From assembly GCA_964388785.1 (NCBI GenBank), contig CAYMBX010000001.1, positions 1-60,525 on the forward strand: DNA of 60,525 bases, read 5' to 3'. The DNA comes from an uncultured Gammaproteobacteria bacterium (GTDB taxonomy: Bacteria > Patescibacteriota > Patescibacteriia > UBA9934 > GWF2-40-263). Made by a program: the position numbers and the translations under genes. Below are positions 6,749 to 60,525 of this stretch, piece after piece; positions within the stretch are counted from its first letter, which is position 1; every line of letters begins with the position of its first letter. A model generated the notes under the pieces. The model was not told where the DNA came from, did no database searches, and worked only from the letters and a program-made list of their open reading frames with translations.

Positions 6749-6774
6749 AGATATGGGTCAGTATAGCATTCGTG

Positions 6775-6806
6775 AAAAGAAAAAAACGAACGGCAAAGCG
6801 TTCGTT
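6775..6806 (-). terminator. Rho-independent terminator of the RNA ligase gene
   Basis: AACGAACG-loop-CGTTCGTT overlapping the stop codon, followed by a T-run on the minus strand. Confidence 0.75.
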
Positions 6807-8028: not shown

Positions 8029-8087
8029 GATTCCTCCGTTTTTCTTGTCGTGCCAAAGAGCGCGAAGAACCTATCCGAATATGCGGC

Positions 8088-8113
8088 TTTTGTCAATCAA
8101 TTGATTGACAAAA
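8088..8113. promoter_or_regulatory. Perfect 26-bp palindrome carrying back-to-back -35 boxes of divergent promoters
   Basis: TTTTGTCAATCAA|TTGATTGACAAAA. Plus strand: TTGACA(8105-8110)-N17-TATGCT(8128-8133). Minus strand: TTGACA(8096-8091)-N17-TAGGTT(8073-8068). Confidence 0.7.
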
Positions 8114-8157
8114 TGAACAATTTCGTGTATGCTTTTGCGTCGCTTGTGAATTGCGGA

Positions 8158-8194
8158 AAGCCCGAATTTGCAGCGTCCAAGCCCGAATTTGCAG
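8158..8194 (+). repeat. Tandem direct repeat, 2 x AAGCCCGAATTTGCAG (period 21) in the 5' UTR of the 8204 gene
   Basis: Identical 16-mers at 8158..8173 and 8179..8194. The second copy runs into the AGGAG Shine-Dalgarno sequence. Confidence 0.85.
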
Positions 8195-8203
8195 GAGAAA
8201 GAC

Positions 8204-8959
8204 ATGGCTCGTTTTCATGTTTCACGCCAGCCAGGGGGCGACCTGATCACACGTATTCTGGACGACTCCGACGAGCACACTGCGATCGTCGAGCTCGAGA
8301 TCTACGTCGACGATCAGACCGACCAGAAGATCCGCGTAGTCGACAAGATCGAGTGTCCGGACCACTACCAGTCCGGAGGACTCTGTTCGATCTGCGGAGG
8401 CCGGGGCTCAAGCTTCGCGACAAAGGTCAAGATCGCCGGGTTCGAAATTGTGGACGGAGATCTCACGACCGTCCCCGAAGACGGCTGGCTGCGCGGATCA
8501 CTGAAGATCGTGAACGGTCACACCGTGCCAATCGGCGAGTTCGCGATCGACACCAAGCAACGAAAGCGGTTTGGTAGTGGCAACGATGTCATCAACTGCG
8601 ATGGGACATGGCTCACGCTCGCCTACAAGGACGGGCACATCAAAGTTGTTCCTTCGGGAACCATCGGACACACCTTCGCGGCACCCACTACGTCGACGAC
8701 TCAGCGGATGCTCAACCTCGTGATCCTACGTGAGGGCGTCAACATCTTCGTCGACGGCCTCCCGTTCGCGCACGGAAGCGTTCACGGCAACGCCGAGGGT
8801 ACCGAGCTCATGCTCAACACCAGCGGCACTCGGCTGAGAGTCGACACGCACGGCAAACGCGGGATCAAGGTCGATGTCATCCGAGGCGAAACAGTGCTGT
8901 TTTCCATGAAAACCACCGCGCGTACCCTCGAGCTCGACTGGAACGTGGAGGGAAAATGA
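8204..8959 (+). CDS. Hypothetical protein with one DnaJ-type CxxCxGxG zinc knuckle (CSICGGRG)
   Basis: 251-aa ORF starting at ATG 8204 with AGGAG Shine-Dalgarno. Its stop overlaps the next ATG (ATGA). Confidence 0.6.
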   Translation: MARFHVSRQPGGDLITRILDDSDEHTAIVELEIYVDDQTDQKIRVVDKIECPDHYQSGGLCSICGGRGSSFATKVKIAGFEIVDGDLTTVPEDGWLRGSLKIVNGHTVPIGEFAIDTKQRKRFGSGNDVINCDGTWLTLAYKDGHIKVVPSGTIGHTFAAPTTSTTQRMLNLVILREGVNIFVDGLPFAHGSVHGNAEGTELMLNTSGTRLRVDTHGKRGIKVDVIRGETVLFSMKTTARTLELDWNVEGK

Positions 8960-9884
8960 GCAGCATCGATATGAGCATGATCACCGAGCACGGCCTCGTG
9001 ATCCGTGACGAGGAGCGAACACATCGCGTCCTCGTCCGCAAGGACATGTCCCACCTGCTCGGAAAAGATCCGGCGGTGACCTGCCTCAATCCGGACGCTC
9101 CGGAGAACGAGCGGGTCTACCAAAAGGTCTTCACCAAACGTCGCATCTACCTGCCCAGCGAGTACGACCTTGCGGTGACCAATCACCTCAAGGGCAGGTA
9201 CGTCCTCGTGCTCGCGATGAACGGCTACTCGTCCATCAAGCCGGAGCAGTGCGCAGCCTGGGGCATCAAGCCCGGCGCGTATGAGCATGCCTGCCGGAAC
9301 CTCCTCAAGACGGTCTGGGCAACACTCCGCAAGGAGTTCCCCGACCTGGACATCCGGCTCGTCCACGGAAGCTCCGATCTGGGCGTTGACCGAGCGATCA
9401 TCCAGGCAGCCACGGAGCTGCGCCGTGAGACGCTCGGCTTCTCCTGCCCAGAGTATGCATTCTATGTGCCGGACGACGATGACTTCCCGATGTACATTGC
9501 CGCGACCGTCGCGGAGTACTCAGATGCGTTCGTACGCTCCGCCGACGTGCTCATCGCCGCAAACGGCCGGCTGCAGGCCTACCGGATGAACACCTTGTCG
9601 TGTTCGAACACGACAAGGTGTTCATCCCGATCAACGTGCTGCGACTGATCTCGACGCTGGCAGGTCCGCCACCCAAGAATGCGGCAGGCCAAATCGAGGA
9701 TGCGGTCGCGCACTTCGAGCAGCGCCTGCACATGATCGGACAGGACCGTCCGCATGTTCCCGGAACCGTTGCTCACGACAAATGGAAGAGCGCTCTCTGG
9801 GAGCTCGGCGAAGTACTCATCGATGTTTGCCGACATCAACTCGACCCCGAGATCGGTCTCGAGGTTCCCCCTCCGTCCCGCTGA
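8956..9884 (+). pseudogene. Rossmann/SLOG-like protein gene interrupted by a 44-bp palindrome (reads as ORFs 8956..9648 and 9600..9884)
   Basis: Removing exactly 9584..9627 joins frame 1 to frame 3 seamlessly (...ANGRLQAY-P-INVLRLIS...) and gives one ORF of about 294 aa. VHGSSDLGVDRAIIQAA...ADVLIAANG resembles SLOG/YpsA/DprA-type folds (weak). Confidence 0.5.
9584..9627. repeat. Perfect 44-bp palindrome (GGATGAACACCTTGTCGTGTTC|GAACACGACAAGGTGTTCATCC)
   Basis: Checked base by base: 22+22 nt with no mismatch, centred on TTCGAA, inside coding sequence. Confidence 0.95.
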
Positions 9885-9897
9885 CGGAGGGTTTTTT
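9869..9897 (+). terminator. Rho-independent terminator
   Basis: CCCTCCGTC-ccgct-GACGGAGGG followed by TTTTTT. Confidence 0.85.
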
Positions 9898-9916
9898 ATT
9901 AGGTGCAAAAAAACGC

Positions 9917-9956
9917 TTGACAGCATCATTACTTCGTGTGTATACTTACACTAAGT
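9917..9956 (+). promoter_or_regulatory. nrtR promoter (TTGACA-N18-TATACT) with palindromic operator site A, ACTTCGTGT-N8-ACACTAAGT (9931..9956)
   Basis: The -10 box at 9941..9946 lies in the operator spacer. The ATG at 9957 is only 10 nt after the -10 box, so the mRNA is nearly leaderless. Confidence 0.6.
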
Positions 9957-10625
9957 ATGAAACACCACCCTTCTGCCCAAAATGTAAAAGTTGCTGTGGA
10001 CGCGATCATTTTTACCATCAAAAATGATGCACTTCATGTCCTTCTCATCCAAATGAAAAAAACGCCGTTTACAGGACAATGGGCAGTGCCCGGTGGTCTC
10101 ATTGAAGAAAAAGAAACGACGCATGAAGCCGCAACACGTATTTTGCATACCCAAACCGGCGTCAGAGATGTTTACCTGGAGCAGCTCATGACGTTTGACG
10201 ACGTCGAACGGGATCCGGCGGGACGCGTCTTGAGCGTCTCCTACTTCGCCCTTCTCCCAAATGCCGATGCCAAGATCAAAACGACGGAAAAATATTCCGA
10301 TGTCCGTTGGTGGCCGATCAAGAAACTGCCGACACTTGCCTACGATCACCAACCAATGATTCGTCTCGCACGTAAACGCCTTGAATCAAAAATTCAATAT
10401 ACCAACATCGTCTGGAGCTTGCTTCCACGCGAATTCACGCTCACACAACTTCAACGCGTGTACGAAATCATTCTCGATAAACCGCTCGACAAACGCAATT
10501 TTCGAAAACGCCTCTTGGCCCTGGATTTCATCAAACCCACCGGAAAAAAAGAACAAGGAAGTGCGTATCGACCGGCTGCCCTTTATCAATTCAAACAGCA
10601 CACACTTGAATACGTAGAGATTTAA
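9957..10625 (+). CDS. nrtR: NrtR-type regulator (Nudix-like ADP-ribose-sensing domain plus C-terminal winged helix)
   Basis: Degenerate Nudix box GQWAVPGGLIEEKETTHEAATRILHTQTGV (REL changed to RIL, EE lost). C-terminal FTLTQLQRVYEIILDKPLDKRNFRKRL wHTH. Sits directly upstream of NAD genes. Confidence 0.75.
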   Translation: MKHHPSAQNVKVAVDAIIFTIKNDALHVLLIQMKKTPFTGQWAVPGGLIEEKETTHEAATRILHTQTGVRDVYLEQLMTFDDVERDPAGRVLSVSYFALLPNADAKIKTTEKYSDVRWWPIKKLPTLAYDHQPMIRLARKRLESKIQYTNIVWSLLPREFTLTQLQRVYEIILDKPLDKRNFRKRLLALDFIKPTGKKEQGSAYRPAALYQFKQHTLEYVEI

Positions 10626-10626
10626 G

Positions 10627-10650
10627 AAAAAGGGACAAAATCCCTTTTCT
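10627..10650 (+). terminator. Rho-independent terminator of nrtR
   Basis: AAAAAGGGA-caaaa-TCCCTTTT. Confidence 0.7.
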
Positions 10651-10651
10651 C

Positions 10652-10686
10652 TTGACGTATCAGTTAGTGTGTAATATACACTATAT
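10652..10686 (+). promoter_or_regulatory. NAD-island promoter (TTGACG-N17-TATACA) with operator site B, AGTTAGTGT-N7-ACACTATAT (10662..10686)
   Basis: Same half-site and the same -10-in-spacer geometry as sites A and C. About 158-nt leader to the nadD-like ATG. Confidence 0.6.
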
Positions 10687-10844
10687 AAAATCTTACACAA
10701 TTCATTGACAGAACAACGATTTTCTTGTAACGTCTTCCCCTTTCCTGAATCAGTTAATTAGAAATTTGCGCTTGGACTTCTCGAGCATAAATTTCTCACC
10801 TTCAAAGAGTTGGAGGTGAACCGCACTTCAAAACCGAGGACGTC

Positions 10845-11450
10845 ATGAAAAAGGTGTTTGTGCTTGGCGGGAGTTTCAACCCGCCCGCTCTCCACCACGA
10901 AACAATCGTCCGTGAGCTCATCGCAGTGCTCGATTCGAAGGACGAGCTTCTGGTAATCCCCTGCGGCGATCGGCCGGACAAACGGACCACTGGTTCGGTT
11001 GCGCCGATGCATCGCGCCAACCTAGCACGTCTCGCCTTCGGCAAGTTCGATCGAGTCATGCTCGACTTAAGCGATCTCGACCACGACGAGTTCACCCGCA
11101 CCGCCGATCTCAACGATCGGCTTCGCGCGCAGTATCAAGATTATGAGATCATTCTGGTTGTTGGTCAGGATCTGATCGAAGGCGGGGCCACGGGAGCATC
11201 CGAAATCCATCGCGTTTGGCACAGAGACGAAGAGCTGTGGAACGACGCATCGTTCCTTGTGCTCACGCGCGGTGACAAAGTGCCGGATCGAGATGATCTT
11301 CCGCCACACAGCCACGTCCTACAGATCAGCGCGCCCGGCTCGAGCAGCGAGGTCCGATCACTTATTCGTGAAAACCGCGACGTTCGGTCGCTTATCAGCC
11401 CGAAAGTGCACGAATACATCGTGCATCACCGGCTTTACATGGAGAGATGA
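10845..11450 (+). CDS. nadD: Nicotinate/nicotinamide-mononucleotide adenylyltransferase
   Basis: GGSFNPPALHHETIV (GxFxPxHxxH) and C-terminal SAPGSSSEVRSLI (ISST-like). GAGGA Shine-Dalgarno. Confidence 0.8.
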   Translation: MKKVFVLGGSFNPPALHHETIVRELIAVLDSKDELLVIPCGDRPDKRTTGSVAPMHRANLARLAFGKFDRVMLDLSDLDHDEFTRTADLNDRLRAQYQDYEIILVVGQDLIEGGATGASEIHRVWHRDEELWNDASFLVLTRGDKVPDRDDLPPHSHVLQISAPGSSSEVRSLIRENRDVRSLISPKVHEYIVHHRLYMER

Positions 11451-12580
11451 TGGTTACGCGAGAAAGTCGATTTCAAGGTTCGCTCATGGGCGTACGCATC
11501 GGCGACGGCCTCGGTATGCCGTGGGAATCGCTCACCGCCGAGCAGATTCGCGAGCGCACCGATGGGAAGGGCGTGCATACGTACCACTCCCCACAGCAAC
11601 GCAGCGATGCGCCAGCATGGGCTCTGCAGCTCGGGATTCTCAACCCGGGTGACTCAACCGATGACTGGCAGCTCACGCGCGCGACGGCACAAAGTCTCAT
11701 TCGCTGTGGCCAGCTCGATCTCGCCGATCTGGCACGCACCTTCGTCGACGAACACGCGATCTGCCGTCTCGGTTGGGGCGGAACCACCGAGTGGGGCATC
11801 GCGCAGATCGAAGCGTGGTTCAAGACAAACGGAATCGAAGGACGTTCGCCCGGAGAGTTCCCTCCAAATCCGGAAAGCGAGAACGAACGTTTCGGCACCG
11901 GCAACGGAGTCGCGATGCGCATCGCGCCGATCGGCCTGCTGGCCAGCCACGCGTTTAGCGAAGATGGCCGGATCGATGAGGGTGCGCTGATCAGCTTCAT
12001 GGAGTCTGTCTGGGGAGTGGGAGGTCTCACACATCCAGACCCGCGGGCAACGGTCGGCGCATTCGCGATCGCGAGCTTCATTGCGCGACTCACTGCGCGC
12101 GAAGGCCGGCCGCTCGCACAGCACCATCTCCTCAAGATGTTCGACAGTGTGCTCTATGAGGTCACACGCATGGAGCGCGAGTTCGCGTCGACGATCGGCT
12201 GGACGAGAAATCGTGAGCCGTTCTCAGCGCGGATGAACTGGATTCGTCCGCTCATTCTGGCGAATGCGTCCGCAACGCAGATCCGCGTGAAGTTCGGAAC
12301 CTCGAGCTACACACTCGAGTCCGCTGCGTTCTCGATCGCGACCTTTCTGCGCCACCCCACGGACTTCCGCGCCGCCCTGCGGGAGGCCGTCGAGGCCGGC
12401 GGGGATACGGACACCAACGCCGCGATCGTAGGAAGTCTCGTGGGCGCGAACGTTGGACTCGAAGGAATCCCTGAGGAGTGGATGGGGCGCGGGGACTTCC
12501 TTGTGGCGGAGACGCTGGGATCCGATCTCTGGAACCTGGTCCTGGACATCCTCACGTCACCGTACTCCAACGCTTCTTGA
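11447..12580 (+). CDS. ADP-ribosylglycohydrolase family protein (DraG/ARH-like)
   Basis: N-terminal FQGSLMGVRIGDGLGMPWE and C-terminal GGDTDTNAAIVGSLVGA, which are typical ARH metal-site motifs. Start overlaps the nadD stop. Confidence 0.8.
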   Translation: MMVTRESRFQGSLMGVRIGDGLGMPWESLTAEQIRERTDGKGVHTYHSPQQRSDAPAWALQLGILNPGDSTDDWQLTRATAQSLIRCGQLDLADLARTFVDEHAICRLGWGGTTEWGIAQIEAWFKTNGIEGRSPGEFPPNPESENERFGTGNGVAMRIAPIGLLASHAFSEDGRIDEGALISFMESVWGVGGLTHPDPRATVGAFAIASFIARLTAREGRPLAQHHLLKMFDSVLYEVTRMEREFASTIGWTRNREPFSARMNWIRPLILANASATQIRVKFGTSSYTLESAAFSIATFLRHPTDFRAALREAVEAGGDTDTNAAIVGSLVGANVGLEGIPEEWMGRGDFLVAETLGSDLWNLVLDILTSPYSNAS

Positions 12581-12591
12581 TCTCCTTCTTC

Positions 12592-12640
12592 GCGGACCGG
12601 CTGTGCCTCGGTCGGTCCGCACACCCTTTTTCTTCTTTGT
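12592..12640 (+). terminator. Probable terminator hairpin (GCGGACCG...CGGTCCGC followed by a T-run)
   Basis: Read directly. The T-run is 6 nt after the stem, so this is weaker than the other terminators. Confidence 0.5.
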
Positions 12641-12663
12641 CATTTCGAACGAACCCCCTCTCC

Positions 12664-12742
12664 CTTGTCATCCTGAGGGAGCGCAGCGACCGAAGGATCT
12701 CAAAGTCTGTCGGGATCCTTCGCTGACGCTCAGGATGACAGG
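12664..12742. repeat. Long REP-like inverted repeat (CTTGTCATCCTGAG...CGAAGGATC / GATCCTTCG...CTCAGGATGACAGG)
   Basis: Nested arms at 12664-12677/12729-12742 and 12691-12699/12714-12722. Resembles the GTCATCCTGAG...GAAGGATC palindromic elements common in environmental genomes. Confidence 0.75.
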
Positions 12743-12826
12743 AAAGAAAGCACTCAAAGTGATCAAAAGTTCGCCTGAAATGACAGAGTGGAAACCCCAC
12801 TCTTCGCACCTTCCAAGGAGCAAACC

Positions 12827-14116
12827 ATGCGTCCACACGCAGAATTGATCGACGAAATCCTCGACGGCCCGGTCGTCGGCAACATGCTCGACGACGACTT
12901 CTACACCTACTCGATGGGTCAGGCAATCGTCTTGAACCGCCCGCAGGTCGAAGTCGACTTTCGTCTCACCAATCGTTCGCGAGGCGTCGTGCTCACCCAC
13001 GAGGTCAGTCCGGACGAGCTCGCACAAGAGCTCGACCGGCTCAAGGTTCGACGTTTCACTCGGACGGAACTGCACTATGTGCTCGGAACCAACGAGTACG
13101 GTGAGCGCATGTTCCGATCGGAGTACATCGACCACTTGCGCGAGCTTGCACTGCCCGATTTTCATCTGGGAGTTCGGGATGATGGCCAGTTCGATCTGCG
13201 CTTTCCGGGCGTTTGGTCTCGGGCCATGCACTGGGAAGTTCCGGCCCTCGCGGCGATCAACGGGCTGCGCATGCGCAATGCTCTGCGGCGGATGACACCC
13301 TTCCAGCGTGATGAGGTCATCGCGCGCGGTGTTGCACGGTTGGGCGAGAAAATCCGCGTCATCCGTGAACTTCCGGGTCTCACGTTCACGGACTTCGGAA
13401 CACGGCGCCGCTTCCATCGTGCCTGGCAGCGCTACATCGACAAGACGCTTGCGCAGGAACTCCCCGGACAATTCCTGGGAACCTCGAACGTCGAGGCAGC
13501 CATGGACTTCGGGCTTCTGCCCATGGGCACCAACGCCCACCAGATGTTCATGGTGATCGCCGCGCTCATGAGCGAAACGGATGAAAGTCTGCTGCGCTCA
13601 CACAACCAGGCCCTGCGCGAGTGGTGGCAGCTCTACGGATGGGGTCTCTCAATCGCGCTCACCGACACCTTCGGCACGGACTTCTTCTTCCGTGACTTCA
13701 CGCCCGAACAGGCGCGCGCATGGAAGGGTCTGCGCCAGGACTCCGGGGATCCGATCGTGTTCGGACACAAGGCACTCGACTACTACCATCGCCGTGGCAT
13801 CGATCCGAAAGAGAAGCTTCTCATCTTCTCGGACGGACTCGATCTCGACATGATCGTCCGGCTCTACAACGAGTTCAAGAACGAGATCAAGGTGAGCTTC
13901 GGATGGGGAACGTTGCTCACCAACGACCTCGGACTCTCACCGATCTCGATCGTCATCAAGGCCATGCGCGCAAGGCGTGATGCGGGAAGCGTGTGGATCG
14001 ACACCTGCAAGCTCTCCGACAACATCGCCAAGGCGATGGGTACACGTGAGACGATCGACCGTTACGCACGTGTGTTCGGCTACGACTCGCACTTCGAGGA
14101 GACACCGATCGTCTGA
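12827..14116 (+). CDS. pncB: Nicotinate phosphoribosyltransferase
   Basis: N-terminal MLDDDFYTYSMGQA (the LDTDxYKxTM pattern), about 430 aa. AAGGAG Shine-Dalgarno 6 nt before ATG 12827; the ORF-track GTG at 12788 was rejected. Confidence 0.85.
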   Translation: MRPHAELIDEILDGPVVGNMLDDDFYTYSMGQAIVLNRPQVEVDFRLTNRSRGVVLTHEVSPDELAQELDRLKVRRFTRTELHYVLGTNEYGERMFRSEYIDHLRELALPDFHLGVRDDGQFDLRFPGVWSRAMHWEVPALAAINGLRMRNALRRMTPFQRDEVIARGVARLGEKIRVIRELPGLTFTDFGTRRRFHRAWQRYIDKTLAQELPGQFLGTSNVEAAMDFGLLPMGTNAHQMFMVIAALMSETDESLLRSHNQALREWWQLYGWGLSIALTDTFGTDFFFRDFTPEQARAWKGLRQDSGDPIVFGHKALDYYHRRGIDPKEKLLIFSDGLDLDMIVRLYNEFKNEIKVSFGWGTLLTNDLGLSPISIVIKAMRARRDAGSVWIDTCKLSDNIAKAMGTRETIDRYARVFGYDSHFEETPIV

Positions 14117-14222
14117 TGCTCCTTTCCCTCCCTGACCAGCCTCACTGGTCGCTTTTCGCCAGCTGCTCACCATATGGTGGGACGCTGACGATTCGTATTG
14201 TTCTTCACAACGAGGTAACCCC

Positions 14223-16271
14223 ATGACCGTCAAGGTACAAACCGTTCGCGGACGTTCAACGTCGCATGGGTTCGCTCGCGTCGCCGCCGCCTCCTTTTGG
14301 ACGCGCCCGGCTGCGATTGAGCAGAATTTGCAGCGTCACCTCGAAGCCGCTCGCGAGGCGGACGCCGAGCGCGTTCAACTGCTCGTCTTCCCTGAACTCG
14401 GCCTCACCGGCTACGCTTGTCGCGATCTCTTCCGGGACGACCACCTGCGCGTGCGTGCGCTCGAAGCGCTTCGGACGTTCTGCGACGAAACCCAGGACAT
14501 GGGAACCGTGTTCGTAGTCGGTCTGCCGCTCGCACTCAACGGTCTGTACAACGTGGCAGCTGTCGTCATTCACGGAGAGGTGCTGGCACTCATCCCCAAA
14601 TCCTTCCTCGCGGCTCGCAGTGAGTGGCAGGAAGACGAATGGTTCGTGCCGGCGTCGCACCTGCAGACCGAGTCGGTCATCCTGCCCTGGCAGAAAGAAG
14701 CCGTTCCGATCGGAACGGACATTCTGATCGAGGTGATGGACGAGAACGATGAAGAGCAGGTGTTCGTTCTGGGTGTCGAAATCTGTGCGGACGGCTGGCA
14801 GGCCGGCTCGCCCGGTGATCGGCTGGCACTCAACGGCGCGACCGTCATCGCCAACCTCTCGGCATCCAACTGGGTGCTCGGGAAGGACAAATGGCGTGAG
14901 GTCGTCTTCCCGGCCAGCTCGGGTCAGCAGAAGGCCGTCTACATCTACTGCACGATGGCTGGCGACTCGACCGCGAGCGTCACTTGGGACGGCCACTGCT
15001 TCATCGCCGAGGACGGCAACATCCTCGCGCGTTCCAAGCGTTGGCTCACGCCCACGCAGAGCGACCTTAGCGTCGCAGACGTGGACATCGCGCGCCTTCT
15101 GCGCGATCGAATGGTCGACGGCGAGTGGGCACAGGCCGAACATCTCCACCAATCGCCGCACCGAAAGATCACCGCCTTCGTGCGCACCTGGCCCGCGGAC
15201 GTCAACGATTTCCGCCGCCCGCTCACGCGCATGCCGTTTGTCCCGAAGGACGCAGCGGTGATGCACGAGGTCGCAACCGAACTGTTCCAGGGTCTCGCCC
15301 AAGGACTGATCGGCCGACTCTGGACGATGAAAAATGGTCAGCCGATCGATACCTACCTTGGCCTCTCCGGCGGGTCGGACTCTACGCTCGTCTATCTCAT
15401 CGCGTGCTACGTCTACGATCGGCTCGGCTGGGACCGCAAGCACTTGCACGCGGTGCGCCTGCCCGGGCCCGCCTCGAGCACGCGCACACAGCGCAACTCA
15501 CGCCTGCTCGCGCAGGCGATGGGGACGAGTCTGCACACCGTCAACATCACGAAGCTCGCCACGCGCGCGCTGCGTGACGTGGGACACGAGCCGTGCTGGC
15601 AGTGCCTCCAGTGCGAGAACGCACAGGCACGCGCCCGCACGTTCGTGCTCATGACCTACGGATTCGTTCTGGGCACCGGCGACATGACCGAAAAGGTGCT
15701 TGGATGGGCCACCTATAACGGCGACCAGATGTCGATGTACGACGTCATCGCCGGAGTGCCCAAGACGCTCGTGCGCTACCTCATCGCCGCCTACGTCGAA
15801 CACATGACCAAGGACATGGTGGTGAGACGCACGCTTCGAAGCATCCTCGCCGAGGTGATCTCGCCCGAGCTCGTCAAAGTCAAGCCCGGCGAACCGATCC
15901 AGTCTTCCGAGGCGAAGATCGGTCCGTACGATCTCAACGACTTCTTCCTCTACCATGTGATCCGCACCGGCGCCACGCCCGCGCGGATCGCCTTCCTCGC
16001 ACAGATCGCGTTCTCGAGGAAGGAACGTGAGACGGACCTCATCTACAACCTGCCAACCATCCTCACGTGGTTGAAGAGCTTCTACAGCCGGTTCAACCCG
16101 GCCCAGTACAAGCGAAATGCCGGTGCGGATAGCGTGCTTATTGGATCGGTGGGAATCGGCCCACACGACAAGCTGCGTTTGCCCTCCGACGGCGATGTGT
16201 TGATCTATCTGCGTGAGGTTGAGGCCATGCTGACGGCTGTCAGCTCATGCACCGAGGCGGCTGCAGCGTAA
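14223..16271 (+). CDS. nadE: Glutamine-dependent NAD+ synthetase (CN-hydrolase domain plus NAD synthetase domain)
   Basis: N-terminal nitrilase-like LLVFPELGLTGY...EICAD. C-terminal LGLSGGSDST PP-loop. 682 aa. GAGGT Shine-Dalgarno. Confidence 0.9.
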   Translation: MTVKVQTVRGRSTSHGFARVAAASFWTRPAAIEQNLQRHLEAAREADAERVQLLVFPELGLTGYACRDLFRDDHLRVRALEALRTFCDETQDMGTVFVVGLPLALNGLYNVAAVVIHGEVLALIPKSFLAARSEWQEDEWFVPASHLQTESVILPWQKEAVPIGTDILIEVMDENDEEQVFVLGVEICADGWQAGSPGDRLALNGATVIANLSASNWVLGKDKWREVVFPASSGQQKAVYIYCTMAGDSTASVTWDGHCFIAEDGNILARSKRWLTPTQSDLSVADVDIARLLRDRMVDGEWAQAEHLHQSPHRKITAFVRTWPADVNDFRRPLTRMPFVPKDAAVMHEVATELFQGLAQGLIGRLWTMKNGQPIDTYLGLSGGSDSTLVYLIACYVYDRLGWDRKHLHAVRLPGPASSTRTQRNSRLLAQAMGTSLHTVNITKLATRALRDVGHEPCWQCLQCENAQARARTFVLMTYGFVLGTGDMTEKVLGWATYNGDQMSMYDVIAGVPKTLVRYLIAAYVEHMTKDMVVRRTLRSILAEVISPELVKVKPGEPIQSSEAKIGPYDLNDFFLYHVIRTGATPARIAFLAQIAFSRKERETDLIYNLPTILTWLKSFYSRFNPAQYKRNAGADSVLIGSVGIGPHDKLRLPSDGDVLIYLREVEAMLTAVSSCTEAAAA

Positions 16272-16283
16272 CCGCGCCTCTCT

Positions 16284-16312
16284 GCAGCGAACTCCCTGTT
16301 CGCTGCTTTTTT
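16284..16312 (+). terminator. Rho-independent terminator after nadE
   Basis: GCAGCGAAC-tccct-GTTCGCTGC followed by TTTTTT. Confidence 0.85.
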
Positions 16313-16347
16313 GTTAAGTGGTAGGAGTGAAGTGTGAGGGGATCGGG

Positions 16348-16380
16348 TTGACGAATTTCAAAAATTCGTGCATAATTCGT
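16348..16380 (+). promoter_or_regulatory. Internal promoter TTGACG-N17-CATAAT with inverted repeat ACGAATTT-ca-AAATTCGT (16351..16369) and a third AATTCGT at 16374
   Basis: Read directly, in a low-GC spacer between nadE and the Nudix pair. Confidence 0.55.
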
Positions 16381-16412
16381 CCTCGCGATTAACGTTGCGA
16401 GCAACTCGGAGA

Positions 16413-17210
16413 ATGGAAATGTCACATTCCATCATGATCAACGGGCGAACAGTGCCCGTGACCGGCCAATACGCACCGGAGGCGGTCGACAGCCCACTCC
16501 TCAAGGACTGGGCGACTTCGCTCGATCCCCGCATCGTCGTGAACAAGGTGAAGGTGCTCGCACTCGTCCTGTTTGGAAAGCTGCCAAAACTCCGCGTCGG
16601 GTTCATGATGATCGATGCGGAGATGACGCTCGATGGCAAGTCCATTCCCGGCGTGGCGTTCCTGCGCGGCGATGCGGTCGCCATCTTCGTCGAAGTCAAC
16701 TGCGAGGGTGAGCGCTACGCACTCATGACCGTTCAACCACGCGGGCCGGTCGGCGAACTACTCGTCGAAATCCCGGCCGGCATGATGGACGGCAGTGGTC
16801 ACTTCCTCGGCAAGGCCGCGGACGAGCTACGCGAAGAAACGGACATCGAGATCGACCCCGCGCAACTCATCGATCTGTGTGCGCTTGCGCAAGGGTCGCC
16901 GGCGCCGCGTGGCGTCTACACGTCCCCAGGCGGCAGCGACGAGGCCATTCACTACTACTGGTACCGCGTCGTCCTCAGCCGCGAGGAGCTCAAGGAACTC
17001 GAAGGCAAGGCTACCGGTCTGCTCGAGGAGGGCGAACAGATCACGCTCAAGGTCGTCCCCTTCGGCGAGCTCGCCCGATACCGCGACGGCAAGCTCATGA
17101 CCGCACTCGGTCTGCTCGCCGTCATGGAACTCGCGGAGACGTACAGGATCGTCGATCGCGCCGTTGTGAACGCAGATCTCAACAAGGCGGCAATCGAAGC
17201 CGCTGCCTAG
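16413..17210 (+). CDS. Nudix hydrolase, ADP-sugar/ADP-ribose pyrophosphatase-like
   Basis: PAGMMDGSGHFLGKAADELREETDIEI Nudix box and a long N-terminal dimerisation-type domain as in ADPRases. Start chosen at ATG 16413 after GGAGA. Confidence 0.7.
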   Translation: MEMSHSIMINGRTVPVTGQYAPEAVDSPLLKDWATSLDPRIVVNKVKVLALVLFGKLPKLRVGFMMIDAEMTLDGKSIPGVAFLRGDAVAIFVEVNCEGERYALMTVQPRGPVGELLVEIPAGMMDGSGHFLGKAADELREETDIEIDPAQLIDLCALAQGSPAPRGVYTSPGGSDEAIHYYWYRVVLSREELKELEGKATGLLEEGEQITLKVVPFGELARYRDGKLMTALGLLAVMELAETYRIVDRAVVNADLNKAAIEAAA

Positions 17211-17225
17211 TCCAAGGAGACAGAC

Positions 17226-17678
17226 GTGAGCCACTACCGAAATCCTACCCCCGTCGTGGTCGTCATCCAGCCTGTGCGCCGACTTGATGGGAGTTCGGGT
17301 GTCATCCTCGTCCGACGAACCATCGAACCCGCCAAGGGTGAGCTGGTTCTGCCAGGCGGCTACCAAGTGATCGAGGACTGGCGGGATGCCGGCGCACGCG
17401 AACTTTTGCAAGAGGCGAGCATCGAGGTCGATCCTTCGACACTCCGACGATTCGGCTACGAGTCGACGCCGGACAACAGCAAGATCATCCTGTTCTGCGT
17501 GGCACCCGAGCTCGACGAGCGAGATCTCCCCGCCTTCGAGCCGCTGCCCAACGAATCGGGTGTTGTCGAGACGAGCCAACGGGTCATCGGAACGCTCGAT
17601 GATCTGCACCTCATCCCCTGGTCGCTGCACCAGTTCGCGTTTGCACGATTCCTGCGCGGCGATCCGTTCCTCCCCTAA
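17226..17678 (+). CDS. Nudix hydrolase
   Basis: VLPGGYQVIEDWRDAGARELLQEASIEV Nudix box. GTG start with AAGGAG Shine-Dalgarno. Confidence 0.7.
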   Translation: MSHYRNPTPVVVVIQPVRRLDGSSGVILVRRTIEPAKGELVLPGGYQVIEDWRDAGARELLQEASIEVDPSTLRRFGYESTPDNSKIILFCVAPELDERDLPAFEPLPNESGVVETSQRVIGTLDDLHLIPWSLHQFAFARFLRGDPFLP

Positions 17679-17699
17679 CTCCCCTGCGGGAGTTTTTTG
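17678..17699 (+). terminator. Rho-independent terminator
   Basis: ACTCCC-ctgc-GGGAGT followed by TTTTTT. Confidence 0.75.
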
Positions 17700-17743
17700 T
17701 TTTCCTTCTCTTCATAACTCCAGTCCGGACGTTCATCTGCCTT

Positions 17744-17785
17744 GCCGAAGGGAACAACGGTGATGAGTCCGTTGGCCCGAAGGCA
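17744..17785. repeat. REP-like element, family 2 copy (GCCGAAGGGAACAACGG-N8-CCGTTGGCCCGAAGGCA)
   Basis: Near-identical to 1393..1433. Lies between convergent genes. Confidence 0.75.
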
Positions 17786-17819
17786 GGGCAGACGAACGAA
17801 CAACATAAAAAGGACGCTT

Positions 17820-19160
17820 TCACGTCCAAGAAAAAAGATCGCCGCCGGTCTTTTTCGAAAAATCGACGTAACGATCAACGAAGTTGATGACGCACGCGGC
17901 GTCTACGTCGCGGTGAAACGCAATGTTGGGTCCGTGTCCGTCGAGCTGCACCGCGTAGATGCCGGGTTCGATCTCGCGCATGTTGGAGGCGGTGTTGAAT
18001 CCACATTCGTTCGAACCGCATTCAAACGGTTTCTGGCTCGCCGTCGGGATCATCTGCTCGCCTTCGCGCGTGAGCGGACAGTGCACATGCACGATCGCAT
18101 GGACCTTGTCAGCAAACCGTTCGTAGATTTGCTGCTGGGTGTGTTCGCCGACCGAGGGTCGAGCGCCCGCCGCGATGATGCTTCCATCCTCATCGCCAAA
18201 GATCTTTGCCATGCCGTCCTCGAGCACACGGTTGTGATCGGTCTTGCGCACCGAACTCACACGTACGTACGGCTCGCCATCGACAAAGCATCCGAAGTGC
18301 CCGCTCGTTTTTCCGAGAAACGATTTGAAGCCGCCACGTGCGATCAGATGCTCGAGCACCGGAACGAAGTTCTGCGGAATCTTGCCCTGCGCATACAGTT
18401 CACGAACATTCGCCCTCTCGCCTTCCCGCATCGTGGTACGCACGAAGGTGAGTTTGGTACGATCTGCGATCATCTCACAAAGCAGATCGAGTGCTTCACC
18501 TCGCGATGAAGTCGCGTACGGAAATTCCTCTGGGGTCACCACGAGGTTCGTGTGACGCACCACGTCGTTTGCGAGCACGAGGTTTGCACTGTTCCTCTTG
18601 AGGAGCTTCAGTCCGCGCGCGTACGTCTCCTGTTCACTCTGTCCGGCCGTCGTTTTGAACGCGACCAGAAAGATGTCTTTGCGCGTACGACGAACCGTTG
18701 TAAGCAACTTCTCGCTGGGAACGATCGTAAGCGTGTGTTCACGATCGGACGACAGACGCGGATGTATGTGCTTGCCGAAGACAGTTGGATCCGTGTAGGT
18801 CGGAGTGATCTGCAATGGTTCGAAATCGCACACGGCCGCGGCAGCGATGATGCAACGCGTCGATGGGTCTGTTGCGAGATGTGTCAGCAGAGCTTCCAAA
18901 TCCTCGTTGGTGACCAGGTCATGGATACCGACTTTCGCGAACAGCTCTTCGTCTTCTTGTGCACGATCCCATCCTCCCTGTGCCATGCGTGTGAGGACCA
19001 GGCGAACTTCCGCGCCCTCGTGCCCGGCCCTGATAAGGGCACCCGGCAGTCGACCTACAAGCTCACGTCCAACTTTGCCGAACGCCGGTGCGGAAAGCGC
19101 GAAATGCGGCGAGACGTGGTTGAACGTTCCACCCGCAATGACGTAATACACACATTTCAT
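17820..19160 (-). CDS. Fusion protein: phosphopantothenate-cysteine-ligase-like (DFP/CoaB fold) N-domain plus class II aldolase/adducin-like C-domain
   Basis: N-domain: VIAGGTFNHVSPHFALSAPAFGKVG and AAAVCDF (compare the CoaB patterns TAGGT..PID and AAAVaDy). C-domain: GKTSGHFG, ARPSVGEHTQQQIYERFADKVHAIVHVHCP, LDGHGPN (class II aldolase pattern PSsE..H..iY...aivHtH). AGGAGG Shine-Dalgarno. Confidence 0.6.
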   Translation of the reverse strand: MKCVYYVIAGGTFNHVSPHFALSAPAFGKVGRELVGRLPGALIRAGHEGAEVRLVLTRMAQGGWDRAQEDEELFAKVGIHDLVTNEDLEALLTHLATDPSTRCIIAAAAVCDFEPLQITPTYTDPTVFGKHIHPRLSSDREHTLTIVPSEKLLTTVRRTRKDIFLVAFKTTAGQSEQETYARGLKLLKRNSANLVLANDVVRHTNLVVTPEEFPYATSSRGEALDLLCEMIADRTKLTFVRTTMREGERANVRELYAQGKIPQNFVPVLEHLIARGGFKSFLGKTSGHFGCFVDGEPYVRVSSVRKTDHNRVLEDGMAKIFGDEDGSIIAAGARPSVGEHTQQQIYERFADKVHAIVHVHCPLTREGEQMIPTASQKPFECGSNECGFNTASNMREIEPGIYAVQLDGHGPNIAFHRDVDAACVINFVDRYVDFSKKTGGDLFSWT

Positions 19161-19281
19161 GGATCCCTCCTTTTTAAGGATCTGTGGGGAGAGTACTACG
19201 CTGAGATGTCAAAGAACAGATCTGTTTATCAAATCAGATTGACAGTCGTATCCTCGATCGGTAAAACGTCGAAGGCGATAA

Positions 19282-19296
19282 GTTGGCCCGGAGGCA
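19282..19296. repeat. Partial family-2 REP copy (GTTGGCCCGGAGGCA)
   Basis: Identical to the 3' half of the 1393..1433 element. Confidence 0.5.
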
Positions 19297-19324
19297 GAGT
19301 GTCACCCTGGTGAAAGGAAAACCT

Positions 19325-20539
19325 ATGAACCCATCGGAGCGCATTGCGCGCAATCCGCGCCTGCTCTTTTGGGGACGGGCGCTCTATGAAACAAAAATGC
19401 TCAACGCCGTGATTGTGTTGTTTTATCTCCACCGCGGTCTTGGACTCGATCACGTCTTCTACATGAGTATTGTGTGGTCGCTCACCGCGCTGGTGGCGGA
19501 AATCCCGTCCGGGTATCTTGCCGATCGCATCGGCCGCAAGCGCACGCTCATCCTGGGCGTTCTTCTGCTCATCGCCTCTCACGTGGTTACGTTCTTTGCT
19601 GTTGGCCTCTGGCCGTTCATGGTCGTGTTTGTGCTTATGTCCGCTTCATATGCATGCTTCTCGGGAACAGAGGAAGCACTGCTTTATGAGAGCCTTGCGG
19701 AAACGAAAAACGAACACGACATGAATGACCGAAACGGCAAGCAACTCTCCGCACGTTCGCTTTCCGCGATTTTCCTACCTGCGATCGGCGCGTTAATCGC
19801 GCATGACTTGCTCGAATGGCAATTCCAACTTCTCATCGTGTTGAACCTAGTTGGGACGCTTGCGGCCCTCGTCATCTTGAACCGTCTTGAGGAACCGACG
19901 GCTCGGCAGAGTGTTGCCACCCGAGAAATCAGCATCTTCAGGCAAAGTCTTCGAACCATCAAAAATGATCCATGGCTCCTGAAAGTCACGCTCAACAAAT
20001 TGCTCGTGTTCATTGCCGCCTTCCTGACTTGGCGCATTTCACAGCCGTACTTGAACGCTCACGGATTCGGAGCCGAAGCATTGGGAATCTTCTACGTATC
20101 CTTCCAAATCCTCGAGTTTGCAGGTGGTTGGTTCGCGGGAAAAATCGAAAAACGAGTGGGAACTGCGAGCGTCCTGCTGGCAACCCCACTCGTCATGATC
20201 GGTTCGCTTCTCGTTTCTATCTTCACGACAAACGTCTGGATCATCTTTGCCGCTCTTGCGCTCGCGATCTCGGCAAACGCGTTTCGCGAACCGGTCTTCG
20301 CACACGCGGTCAATGCGCGCATTCACTCGGACAGCCGCGCCACCACTCTGTCCAATCTCAACGTTCTCAAGGGATTGCTCGATATCCCTGTTCTGTTTCT
20401 TGCAGGATACTTCGCACAGACAACGCTCACGTTTCCGCTCATTCTTGCAATCGCTCTGTGTGGAGTTTCCATCGTCTTGCTACCGATTCGTCAACAGGAA
20501 CTCGTAGCAACAAAAGAGAGTGTAGCCGCTACCCCTTAG
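19325..20539 (+). CDS. MFS transporter
   Basis: About 12 predicted hydrophobic helices and the loop 2-3 motif GYLADRIGRKRT. Start at ATG 19325 after AAAGGAAA. Confidence 0.8.
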   Translation: MNPSERIARNPRLLFWGRALYETKMLNAVIVLFYLHRGLGLDHVFYMSIVWSLTALVAEIPSGYLADRIGRKRTLILGVLLLIASHVVTFFAVGLWPFMVVFVLMSASYACFSGTEEALLYESLAETKNEHDMNDRNGKQLSARSLSAIFLPAIGALIAHDLLEWQFQLLIVLNLVGTLAALVILNRLEEPTARQSVATREISIFRQSLRTIKNDPWLLKVTLNKLLVFIAAFLTWRISQPYLNAHGFGAEALGIFYVSFQILEFAGGWFAGKIEKRVGTASVLLATPLVMIGSLLVSIFTTNVWIIFAALALAISANAFREPVFAHAVNARIHSDSRATTLSNLNVLKGLLDIPVLFLAGYFAQTTLTFPLILAIALCGVSIVLLPIRQQELVATKESVAATP

Positions 20540-22657: not shown

Positions 22658-23202
22658 ACATCCTGGTGGGCGTGACGGGTTCTGTGGCGACGATCGTCGT
22701 CAAGAAACTCGTCGATGCGCTCAGCGCGCGCGGTCACGAAGTCCAAGTCGTTGCGACCAAATCTTCCCTCTACTTCTTCGATTCCGATTCGCTCGGGGTG
22801 AAGGTGTGGAAGGACGAGGACGAATGGCCCGGGAATGGCTACGAGCGTGGGCAATCGATCCCGCATATCGAGCTGCGGCGTTGGGCGGACGCGCTGCTCA
22901 TCGCGCCACTGAGCGCTAACACGCTCGGAAAGCTCGCGGGCGGCCTGTGCGATAACCTGCTCACGTGTGTCTTCCGCGCGTGGGATTTCAAAAAGCCGGT
23001 GGTCATCGCCCCGGCTATGAACACGCACATGTGGGAAAGCCCGTTTACTCGTATCCATTTGCGAACACTCGAGGGACTGAGCGCGTTAGGACTCAAGCTC
23101 GTTGTCATCGATCCGATCGCGAAGACACTCGCTTGCGCCGACGTCGGGATAGGCGCGATGGCGGAAGTCGACACGATCGTCTCCTCCGTCAACACACTCT
23201 AA
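22654..23202 (+). CDS. coaC: Phosphopantothenoylcysteine decarboxylase (flavoprotein, CoaC/HFCD family)
   Basis: MNILVGVTGSVA, APLSANTLGKLAGGLCDNLL and APAMNTHMW motifs. ATGA overlap with coaB. Confidence 0.85.
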   Translation: MNILVGVTGSVATIVVKKLVDALSARGHEVQVVATKSSLYFFDSDSLGVKVWKDEDEWPGNGYERGQSIPHIELRRWADALLIAPLSANTLGKLAGGLCDNLLTCVFRAWDFKKPVVIAPAMNTHMWESPFTRIHLRTLEGLSALGLKLVVIDPIAKTLACADVGIGAMAEVDTIVSSVNTL

Positions 23203-46130: not shown

Positions 46131-46140
46131 GATGATCTTT

Positions 46141-59355: not shown

Positions 59356-60525
<1,170 letters not shown>

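Follow-up and report, generated by a model that had tools for sequence, protein, structure and literature searches.

The gene cluster at positions 10845–17678 of the analysed window (the whole stretch of 60,525 nucleotides from contig CAYMBX010000001.1) is probably an NAD supply module of Uhrbacteria-type Patescibacteria. In this module, NrtR-controlled salvage would combine an old, vertically inherited regulator with enzymes that are exchangeable within the gene pool of the family and were not recently imported from outside.

Gene content and regulatory signals

Profile searches confirmed the six consecutive plus-strand genes, and their families, that a first-pass annotation had proposed from the sequence, with NadD and NudB scoring below model cut-offs. 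The features of the locus are as follows.

9917..9956, plus strand: nrtR promoter (TTGACA-18-TATACT; promoter scan), overlapped by a putative NrtR operator (site A)
9936..10625, plus strand: nrtR, Nudix plus winged-helix repressor (PF21906, 93 bits; PF00293, 59 bits)
10652..10686, plus strand: promoter-like TTGACG...TAATAT with a predicted NrtR operator, about 160 nt 5′ of nadD
10845..11450, plus strand: nadD, NaMN/NMN adenylyltransferase with motifs GSFNP..HH and SSSEVR (TIGR00482, 95 bits, cut-off 112; PF01467)
11447..12580, plus strand: ARH-family ADP-ribosylglycohydrolase (PF03747, 177 bits, full length, 1–287 of 287)
12664..12742, no strand: palindromic, REP/MITE-like repeat element of 79 bp within the ARH–pncB spacer (about 15–20 genome copies)
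12827..14116, plus strand: pncB, nicotinate phosphoribosyltransferase of the ‘type B’ lineage (NF003704, 388 bits, cut-off 379; TIGR01514, 302 bits, cut-off 270)
14223..16271, plus strand: nadE, glutamine-dependent NAD synthetase with CN-hydrolase and NAD synthase domains (NF002730, 588 bits, cut-off 473)
16284..16313, plus strand: intrinsic terminator 3′ of nadE, a 9-bp stem followed by a T run
16348..16376, plus strand: promoter-like site TTGACG-17-CATAAT holding the palindrome ACGAATTTcaaAAATTCGT
16413..17210, plus strand: nudA, 265-aa Nudix protein, ADP-ribose pyrophosphatase-like (PF00293, 25.6 bits, cut-off 21.1)
17226..17678, plus strand: nudB, 150-aa Nudix protein with the box GGYQVIEDWRDAGARELLQEASI (PF00293, 20.5 bits, slightly below cut-off)
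17677..17700, plus strand: intrinsic terminator 3′ of nudB
17820..19160, minus strand: 446-aa protein with a CoaB/DFP-like N-terminal part (PF04127, 38 bits)
19283..20539, plus strand: MFS transporter with its own promoter (PF07690)

The real start of nrtR is probably the ATG near 9957; the product reaches 156 bits with NF050029, below the cut-off of 400 for that model. Genome-wide pattern searches located a perfect operator, TAGTGT-N7-ACACTA, at 10665-10683, which is the sole perfect copy in the genome, and a third NrtR-type site at 41972-41990 in the window. Site A is also kept in the congener G002. The perfect operator on the nadD promoter and the related site 5′ of nrtR agree with what is described for NrtR, both in the core GT-N7-AC and in the logic of repression (Rodionov et al. 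2008, PMC2330246).

The nadD stop and the ARH start overlap (ATGA). The ARH translation shows PWE, STDD, and GGDTDT, so that its metal-site motifs are intact, and its closest solved structures are MJ1187, DraG, and ARH3 (E 1e-15 to 1e-11). Both pncB and nudA most likely begin later than their longest ORFs, at ATG 12827 (SD AAGGAG 6 nt 5′) and ATG 16413, respectively. The ribosome-binding sites claimed by the first-pass annotation were found before all six starts as SD-like boxes 4–7 nt upstream (GAGGA, GGAGAG, AAGGAG, GAGGT, GGAGA, and AAGGAG). Its two low-GC REP spacers fared less well. The element at 12664..12742 is a repeat, but its GC content is 58%; it is missing from the nearest sampled relative, L101, where the ARH–pncB spacer is otherwise conserved. 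The stretch 16313-16412 is unique in the genome and contains the tail of the nadE terminator and the promoter-like site 16348-16376.

The nadE terminator and the promoter 5′ of nudA divide the six genes into at least two transcription units. The palindrome at the second promoter-like site occurs once in the genome, and no NrtR operator was found there; the tie of nudA-nudB to the operon is thus one of adjacency alone. NudA has a partly divergent Nudix box (GMMDGSGHFLGKAADELREETDI) and matches the ADPRases 8wv3 and 8zr8 weakly in the PDB (E 0.003), and its homologues sit in the cassettes of three relatives (L032, G087, and G082). In NudB, a Gln takes the place of one catalytic Glu; the protein weakly resembles the Nudix domain of NadM-Nudix and 3cng, and homologues occur in 6/72 family genomes, outside the cassettes. 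Four Nudix-fold genes were found in the window rather than the five counted earlier: nrtR, nudA, nudB, and 45705-46208 (minus strand).

NAD salvage and ADP-ribose handling

No nadA, nadB, or nadC was found in the genome, which is scored 100% complete by marker genes. With the de novo genes absent from the assembly, the island is its only NAD route and is not redundant, as redundant de novo synthesis elsewhere would have made it. The genome also encodes the NAD-consuming ligase LigA. The Preiss-Handler route had been called complete; PncB, NadD, and NadE are indeed present, but the word is weakened by two gaps, as neither a PRPP synthetase, which would account for the co-substrate of PncB, nor pncA (nicotinamidase) was found in the genome. 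The proposed ADP-ribose handling fits the ARH with its intact metal site and the two Nudix proteins.

NrtR regulons of this kind are known, for example nrtR-pncA-pncB-nadD-nadE in Clostridium acetobutylicum and nrtR-nadD / pncA-pncB-nadE in Pseudomonas (Rodionov et al. 2008, PMC2330246). The present locus shares with them a Nudix plus winged-helix regulator adjoining the genes it controls, a palindromic operator whose core is GT-N7-AC and which overlaps the promoter (here read from the sequence), targets in the Preiss-Handler and universal NAD steps, and a niaP-like MFS neighbour. It differs from them in that the host belongs to the Patescibacteria and has no other NAD route, pncA is absent, the ARH is translationally coupled within the operon, and the enzymes, unlike the regulator, are GC-rich and swapped among relatives. 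Pairs of nrtR and niaP have already been described (PMC2330246), and the MFS transporter at 19283..20539 is a candidate niacin (NiaP-type) importer. Its gene adjoins nudA in L032; in G002, from which 17820..19160 is missing as part of the block, nrtR is joined straight to it. NrtR has also been linked to a DraG/ARH-family ADP-ribosylglycohydrolase in the Streptomyces nrtR1-draG-SCO1765 cluster, listed under ‘ADPR’ by the same authors (PMC2330246). The Streptomyces ARH is encoded away from the genes for NAD synthesis, whereas the present one lies between nadD and pncB.

The linkage of an ADP-ribosylglycohydrolase to a Nudix regulator could also be read as a conflict response, in which the NrtR regulon senses ADP-ribose arising from ADP-ribosylation or NAD cleavage by a phage or competitor, ARH strips the marks, the Nudix proteins clear ADP-ribose, and NAD is rebuilt. 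Iyer, Burroughs, Anantharaman, and Aravind (2022; PMC9503650, section 3.8) have predicted ARG-centred systems that would counteract ADP-ribosylation by viruses. Like them, the cluster has an ARG/ARH that is not coupled to a transferase: neither an ADP-ribosyltransferase nor a sirtuin was found as a partner near the ARH, and the genome yielded no SIR2. Further hallmarks of those systems that recur here are a Nudix-HTH repressor presumed to respond to ADP-ribose, accessory content that varies between close genomes, and displacement of equivalent genes; the third operator in the window may be counted on the same side. However, the cluster lacks the phosphatases and chaperones by which the published systems are defined, as well as their nuclease effectors; the partners here are housekeeping NAD enzymes, and the systems themselves are predictions. 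In addition, an operon that provides the only NAD route of the cell is required in ordinary growth, and translational coupling of the ARH inside nadD-pncB indicates a metabolic setting. A conflict role thus appears rather improbable.

Composition and evolutionary history

The first-pass annotation had pictured visibly GC-rich genes beside a low-GC nrtR and read them as an acquired cassette. The contrast itself stands: GC content is 60.9% in the island and 57–63% in its genes, as compared with 51% in the genome, 46.7% in nrtR (host-like; GC3 0.48), and 37.9% in the nrtR-nadD spacer, although no gene reaches the 77% of the first-pass spot counts. The six genes have GC3 values of 0.66–0.80 (88th–97th percentile among 931 ORFs; genome median 0.52), and a codon-usage comparison places them far from the ribosomal and rpoBC genes (87th–97th percentile of distance; nrtR, 41st). 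An SD peak is seen in GC-rich ORFs and is absent in native ORFs of the genome. Since core genes are compositionally uniform (GC3 0.41–0.57), the contrast cannot be dismissed as general heterogeneity of the core.

Taken as the fingerprint of a donor, GC content and SD boxes would speak for the whole block having been imported recently and horizontally from beyond the lineage, with a GC-rich host or neighbour from another phylum as a possible source. The absence of the block from four congeners points the same way, as does the type-B PncB clade, whose nearest outgroup includes Vicinamibacteria-type sequences (50–55% identity). The best matches argue against it. Those of NadE (54–66% identity; following tier ≤43%) carry the names Uhrbacteria or Parcubacteria where named, and the protein falls within a clade of 14 rows, in which the named members are Uhrbacteria. 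The best PncB matches (57–78%) belong to a clade of some 14 sequences. For ARH (50–67%), all named matches at ≥40% are Patescibacteria, as is most of its clade. Among 5.8 billion proteins, no match exceeded 78% for PncB or 67% for NadE and ARH. The family itself includes NCBI records named Candidatus Uhrbacteria and Parcubacteria (G066, which is JACPHU01; P0132 on G047; P0035 on G014), so the matches of all three enzymes lie in the organism's own family, which at the level of the lineage speaks against acquisition.

L101 carries the cassette with the same order and GC contrast at dS of about 0.8–2.6, i.e., with synonymous sites largely turned over. In all 13 relatives, from 8 genera, whose RpoB has a GC3 under 0.6, the GC3 of the enzymes lies 0.1–0.46 above that of RpoB, and nrtR stays near RpoB; in high-GC genera, enzymes, nrtR, and RpoB are equal in GC3. 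The identity of the six genes to any single relative varies widely, which argues against arrival as one block, and no tRNA, direct repeats, or integrase were found at the island borders. Recent import from outside the lineage is strongly disfavoured by these data, and we regard it as very improbable.

The opposite extreme, a purely vertical resident set, would derive the cassette from the family ancestor through many losses and no transfer, with GC content and SD boxes kept by selection (e.g., if structured GC-rich mRNAs were translated under a regime of their own) or by gene conversion with a GC bias. The order nrtR, nadD, (ARH), pncB, nadE recurs in about one quarter of 73 family genomes (NrtR in 24/73, PncB in 19/73, and ARH in 20/73) and in about 15 fetched loci, a synteny shared with L101, and it is conserved family-wide behind an nrtR whose tree is congruent with that of RpoB. 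The type-1 NadE tree likewise shows no conflict with the species tree. The GC contrast persists in both the studied genome and L101 at dS of about 1–2.6 and lies mainly at third codon positions, with spacers between GC-rich genes only about 5 points above native spacers; the GC-rich gene 5081-5869 holds its position and high GC3 in G002 and G003 at only 40–54% identity. Yet PncB falls into two deep types (35% mutual identity) that alternate within genera g4 and g41, and in the type-B clade g41 is nested inside closer genera. At least five unrelated NadE lineages occupy the same locus in the family, and NadD is much more diverged than its neighbours between the studied genome and L101 (NrtR 80%, PncB 77%, ARH 67%, and NadD 58% identity), with identities of 36–58% to the cassette NadD proteins of relatives. 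These patterns require gene replacement, and loss alone does not suffice; strict vertical descent is therefore unlikely.

The evidence is better accommodated by a supply module that is exchanged within the family. The region around the cassette is hypervariable, with different genes between the same anchors in G003 and G004, and the cassette is a flexible, family-internal module, in which the ARH-pncB pair is retained in relatives with either PncB type. What remains of the ‘acquired cassette’ is this variability, the absence from four congeners, and the polyphyly of PncB and NadE in the family; recurrence with GC excess across the family, an origin before the L101 split, and unmarked borders speak against the rest. 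Within the genus, a single gain and a single loss in the sister clade would be equally compatible with the pattern.

The GC-rich stretch exceeds the island (also 6805-9884, 17820-19160, and 21078-23058), and the class makes up 13.5% of coding bases. Gios et al. (2025; PMC12455944) ascribe up to 13% of Patescibacteria genome length to transfer, mostly between Patescibacteria, and make no mention of NAD genes. Here, too, the island genes have their nearest relatives in Patescibacteria; unlike in that study, the same gene families here show the contrast family-wide, and it outlasts synonymous-site saturation. The lasting GC excess could reflect transfer from GC-rich relatives followed by partial amelioration, with which the rough numbers agree; they also agree with an excess that selection or biased gene conversion actively maintains.

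A model for NAD supply

Family membership and published NrtR regulons suggest the following mechanism. NrtR would bind the palindrome on the promoter 5′ of nadD and repress nadD-ARH-pncB-nadE. When free ADP-ribose builds up as a sign of NAD consumption, NrtR would leave the operator. Nicotinate, imported possibly via the neighbouring MFS transporter, would be converted to NaMN by PncB, to NaAD by NadD, and to NAD by the glutamine-dependent NadE. ARH would release ADP-ribose from ADP-ribosylated substrates, and the separately transcribed nudA-nudB pair most likely cleaves ADP-ribose to AMP and ribose-5-phosphate. The regulator would be the old component of the family, whereas the enzyme genes would belong to a flexible pool that is carried by about a quarter of its genomes and replaced at the same locus by unrelated versions; the present copy would have been in place before the split from the nearest sampled relative. 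Because the genes are carried and swapped among many relatives, their high GC content is the mark of a gene class long established in this group and not of a fresh foreign import. For this organism, the GC-rich, SD-led appearance of the NAD genes is thus shared by a class of genes that makes up about 13% of the genome, and it does not demonstrate recent import from outside.

Gene content and transcription units of the NAD locus

The ORF listing and the profile searches bear out six consecutive plus-strand genes of the families named in the first-pass annotation, with an NrtR-type regulator gene upstream.

Features of the NAD cassette and the profile evidence for them
9936-10625, upstream of nadD: nrtR; PF00293 (Nudix) 59 bits, PF21906 (NrtR winged helix) 93 bits
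10845-11450, plus strand: nadD; TIGR00482 95 bits (below the cut-off of 112), PF01467 27 bits, GSFNP..HH and SSSEVR motifs
11447-12580, plus strand: ARH-family ADP-ribosylglycohydrolase (ARH); PF03747 positions 1-287 of 287, 177 bits
from ATG 12827, after AAGGAG, plus strand: pncB; NF003704 388 bits (cut-off 379), TIGR01514 302 bits (cut-off 270)
14223-16271, plus strand: glutamine-dependent nadE; NF002730 588 bits (cut-off 473), CN-hydrolase and synthase domains both present

On reading the spacer sequences, the starts of pncB and nudA were moved to ATG 12827 and ATG 16413, the latter preceded by GGAGA; the ATG of the ARH gene overlaps the nadD stop. NrtR scores 156 bits against the NCBIfam equivalog NF050029 (cut-off 400). 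The ARH translation retains the PWE, STDD and GGDTDT motifs, the Glu of the first and the other two presumably forming a two-metal site as in ARH3 and DraG. The nearest solved structures are MJ1187, DraG and ARH3, at E values of 1e-15 to 1e-11 only, and the protein scores 61 bits against the DraG equivalog (cut-off 337) and 31 bits against that of Tri1 (cut-off 490). NudA matches PF00293 above the cut-off with a partly divergent Nudix box, in which G, D and D replace E, R and G of GX5EX7REUXEEXGU, and it weakly resembles Bacillus-type ADP-ribose pyrophosphatases in the PDB (E 0.003); an AlphaFold (AF2) model from a 5-sequence alignment (mean pLDDT 43.6) was too poor for a fold search. NudB lies slightly below the PF00293 cut-off and has the box REUxQE. 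Four Nudix-fold genes are counted in the window, not the five first listed.

The presumed six-gene island resolves into two predicted transcription units, nadD-ARH-pncB-nadE under NrtR and a separate nudA-nudB unit. The perfect palindrome TAGTGTgtaatatACACTA (TAGTGT-N7-ACACTA) lies at 10665-10683 within a TTGACG...TAATAT promoter, about 160 nt 5' of nadD, and a related NrtR-type site, conserved ahead of nrtR in the congener G002, overlaps the nrtR promoter. Both the GT-N7-AC operator core and the placement of the repressor at target promoters are shared with described NrtR regulons, whose known clusters include nrtR-pncA-pncB-nadD-nadE, nrtR-niaP and nrtR-draG (PMC2330246). A genome-wide pattern search returned another NrtR-like site 31 kb from the cluster and none ahead of pncB, nadE or nudA. 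Since an intrinsic terminator at 16284-16306 directs an end after nadE and a promoter-like site at 16348-16376 precedes nudA, the Nudix pair would be transcribed separately, with a second terminator after nudB. Between the -35 and -10 elements of the nudA promoter lies the perfect palindrome ACGAATTTcaaAAATTCGT (16351-16369), the sole close copy in the genome, which may be an operator for some other regulator.

The two spacers described as low-GC REP elements fared differently. The palindrome at 12664-12742 does recur across the genome, in about 15-20 copies, and is an insertion relative to the nearest sampled relative, the metagenome contig L101, but its GC content is 58%; 16313-16412 has no further copy in the genome and was rejected as a second REP spacer. 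Genome-wide, 16 of about 25 palindromic repeat arms (GTCATCCTGAG...CTCAGGATGAC) adjoin a GC-rich ORF, though such ORFs make up about 12% of genes, and arrays related to the 12664-12742 repeat lie beside the NAD genes of two family genomes, G014 and G008. Neither the 160-nt nadD leader nor the rest of 9500-20000 gave an Rfam match above chance to a known riboswitch.

Homology together with published regulon logic provides good support for predicting a Preiss-Handler operon that NrtR represses and that would respond to ADP-ribose, with an ARH gene set inside it and a Nudix pair next to it. With the corrections given above, most of the first-pass observation holds, and the original functional reading, NAD salvage with ADP-ribose handling, appears right.

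Composition and the GC-rich gene class

The contrast between GC-rich genes and a low-GC nrtR holds: the island has 60.9% GC against 51% for the genome, and its genes reach third-position GC (GC3) values of 0.66-0.80, in the 88th-97th percentile. Compared with ribosomal and rpoBC genes, the enzymes lie far off in codon usage, and nrtR is ordinary in both GC3 and codon usage. Core genes, whose possible heterogeneity had been raised as an argument against acquisition, are uniform (GC3 0.41-0.57). The composition is nevertheless not peculiar to the island, since a GC-rich tail of 129 of the 931 ORFs (13.5% of coding bases) is spread across the genome, singly or in small blocks amid core genes. The contrast resides mostly inside genes, as spacers flanked by GC-rich genes exceed native ones by just about 5 points. 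A Pfam scan of 33 of 99 GC-rich ORFs returned mostly unknown or accessory functions (transporters, vWA, SDR, GNAT, peptidase M20), along with a single thymidylate kinase; ribosomal and tRNA-synthetase genes were absent from this set.

The GC-rich class is also set apart by its translation signals. Of the ORFs with a GC3 of at least 0.66, 44% have a GGAG/GAGG core in a sharp peak between -12 and -7; the 680 low-GC ORFs lack such a peak, their 0.04 being the background level. On contig C7 (about 440-455), the 3' end of the 16S still carries CCUCC: GGATCACCTCCTT. Low-GC ORFs in the relatives' loci that were fetched do have the peak (0.24). The GC-rich genera g41 and g18, considered as Shine-Dalgarno users and hence as plausible donors, gave only a weak peak, start calls being unreliable in GC-rich DNA.

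In the window, a 16S rRNA gene starts in 59364-60525 and runs off the contig, its 3' end lying on C7; model positions 874-1047 are absent between 60223 and 60398, where an insertion or a divergent stretch may lie. On the minus strand, 5081-5869 is a GC-rich ORF (GC3 0.72) with no Pfam match, found at the same position in the congeners G002 and G003 at 40-54% identity; its neighbours are 52-92% identical in congeners, and the G003 copy is GC-rich too (0.74). It is best read as a resident, fast-evolving GC-rich gene.

Distribution, inheritance and origin of the cassette

The GTDB family of this genome includes Candidatus Uhrbacteria and Parcubacteria as named by NCBI (G066 is JACPHU01, G047 has P0132 and G014 has P0035). 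In searches of 5.8 billion proteins, the best NadE matches have 54-66% identity, the named ones being Uhrbacteria or Parcubacteria, and the next drop to 43%. The clade to which PncB belongs comprises about 14 sequences (57-78% identity) and is followed by a broad tier at 50-55% that includes Vicinamibacteria and other CPR bacteria, and every named ARH match of at least 40% is from Patescibacteria. The closest NadE, PncB and ARH thus belong to Uhrbacteria and Parcubacteria, the host's own family, and the same collections contain no near-identical donor of the cassette genes, which argues, at the level of lineage, against the foreign origin first proposed.

Of the 73 family genomes surveyed, 24 have NrtR, 19 PncB and 20 ARH, in many cases within a few kb of one another. 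The synteny sought in relatives is there: about 15 fetched loci repeat the order nrtR, (conserved unknown gene), nadD, (ARH), pncB, ..., nadE, and the block is absent from G002. Optional extras in relatives comprise a nucleoside hydrolase, Prs, a radical-SAM gene and a NudA-like Nudix gene. Homologues of the gene at 8956-9648 (34-70% identity) lie within the NAD cassettes of loci L041, L043, L050, L052 and L102, either between nrtR and nadD or beside pncB or nadE; this family is evidently a conserved cassette member without an assigned function. In all 13 genomes with an RpoB GC3 below 0.6, the NAD enzymes exceed RpoB by 0.1-0.46 and nrtR stays near the host value (RpoB 0.38 versus PncB 0.84 in G065; 0.51 versus 0.88 in G008), and in the GC-rich genera (RpoB GC3 0.82-0.90) nrtR and the enzymes are equally GC-rich. 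A low-GC regulator beside GC-rich enzymes is therefore a family-wide pattern.

The regulator and the enzymes have different histories. The NrtR tree repeats the deep split and the genus groups of the RpoB tree, placing the present sequence with G002 and L101. PncB falls into two deep types of about 35% mutual identity that alternate inside genera g4 and g41; the copy studied here is of type B and sister to that of L101, and the distant, GC-rich g41 is nested among closer genera in the type-B clade. Five or more unrelated NadE lineages occupy this same locus across the family; the one found here is a 14-row clade, with Uhrbacteria as its named members and a topology compatible with the species tree. 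Taken with the wide variation in the identities of the six genes to any single relative, the PncB and NadE types argue that the enzymes have been exchanged one at a time behind an NrtR regulator that stayed in place.

The 5.3-kb contig L101 matches the present locus at 80% identity in NrtR, 77% in PncB, 67% in ARH, 58% in NadD and 91% over the first 56 residues of NadE, and its gene order and GC contrast are identical in kind. As L101 carries the cassette at a synonymous divergence of about 0.8-2.6 (saturated for NadD), the cassette predates the split between the two. Between NadD at 10845-11450 and L101:1725-2435, 58% of amino acids are identical and four-fold sites are at chance, a divergence far beyond that of the neighbours; NadD may have been replaced separately or have come under weaker constraint.

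Congeners differ markedly around the cassette. In G002, the MFS gene follows nrtR after 64 bp, and 5963-9884 and 10845-19160 are missing; in G003, collinearity with the window ends at 5869 and resumes at 42049, and the 36 kb between (5963-42040) are replaced by six unrelated genes spanning 6.5 kb; G004 joins 5065 to 36619. These arrangements indicate that the island sits in a hypervariable zone. The stretch 5963-42040, which also takes in low-GC genes that look like core genes, is a large zone of plasticity or rearrangement. Within the block absent from G002, the minus-strand ORF 17820-19160 (446 aa) has a weakly CoaB/DFP-like N-terminal half and a C-terminal half with the look, by eye, of a class II aldolase (ARPS..E..H...HVH); an ordinary CoaB gene occupies 21971-22657.

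Like a classical genomic island, the block is atypical in composition and missing from close relatives. Marks of mobility were sought without success: no direct repeats flank the island, the sole tRNA lies away from it at 36254, and no gene scanned gave an integrase or transposase Pfam match. Given the RpoB tree, one loss in the sister clade accounts for the absence from congeners as well as one gain would. The term "acquired" survives only for a flexible module that members of the family exchange; foreign origin was overstated. GC-rich lineages are plausible reservoirs of the enzymes. The GC excess could reflect partial amelioration after transfer, about 35-40% from a g41-like state, which fits the rough numbers; active maintenance, whether through selection or through biased gene conversion, is an equally good fit, and a neutral-decay test on the comparison with L101 (dS 0.8-2.6) is compatible with both. 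Transfers in Patescibacteria have been put at up to 13% of genome length, mostly within the phylum, in a study that does not mention NAD genes (Gios et al. 2025, PMC12455944). The locus belongs to two known kinds, the NrtR regulon and the flexible genes of Patescibacteria.

NAD supply and the role of the regulon

The 1.0-Mb assembly (59 contigs, 100% complete by marker genes) encodes the NAD-consuming ligase LigA, and neither nadA, nadB and nadC nor a nicotinamidase (PncA, PF00857) or a sirtuin was found in it. With no de novo or nicotinamidase gene among its matches, the cassette is, as far as prediction goes, the sole recognisable NAD route of the genome, and the suspicion that de novo genes elsewhere might make the island redundant falls away. 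The description of the route as a complete Preiss-Handler pathway stands for PncB and NadE, which exceed their cut-offs, and less so for NadD (95 bits against 112); neither Prs nor PncA was found. PRPP synthetase was sought with PF13793 and by tblastn with the Prs of a relative, neither of which matched anything in the genome, yet PncB and three other phosphoribosyltransferases encoded there need PRPP. In the relative's locus L035, prs is carried within the NAD cassette. Nicotinate would have to be imported, for which the adjacent MFS gene is a candidate. A second NAD-related gene may lie at C2:15804-17030 (plus strand; 408 aa, GC3 0.80), where a weakly CinA/PncC-like N-terminal part (E 2e-4, below the cut-off) is joined to a cytidylyltransferase domain with GSFDPLHHGH, a possible NMN deamidase/adenylyltransferase fusion. 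In the literature collection searched, no paper links Patescibacteria or CPR bacteria to pncB or NAD salvage.

It has also been considered whether the NrtR regulon of the family serves as an ADP-ribose-sensing counter-measure to NAD-cleaving or ADP-ribosylating attack where no other NAD source exists. Such a regulon would couple mark removal by a Patescibacteria-specific ARH, always beside pncB, and a distant phosphatase/kinase operon with the same operator to NAD resynthesis, its enzymes being a separately translated, actively maintained, GC-rich and Shine-Dalgarno-dependent class rather than a decaying one. Anti-ADP-ribosylation systems centred on ARG, published as a prediction only, resemble the cassette in having a Nudix regulator; in them ARG is tightly coupled to a phosphatase and a peptide-binding chaperone, with a Nudix-HTH or WYL regulator (PMC9503650). 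However, no phosphatase or chaperone lies within 9900-19200, so that these defining partners are missing from the cluster, and the operon is needed in ordinary growth. A conflict role of this kind is accordingly regarded as unlikely.

The preferred reading, a salvage operon exchanged within the family, bears on more than this genome. It offers a clean case of a vertically inherited regulator whose target enzymes are exchanged between relatives. It also cautions that GC-rich, Shine-Dalgarno-led genes in CPR genomes are not automatically recent foreign imports, the contrast being family-wide and long-lived for the same gene families. Finally, it illustrates the way in which a bacterium that is ultra-small and probably dependent on a host would maintain its NAD, by means of one repressor-controlled salvage operon that is absent from most of its relatives.
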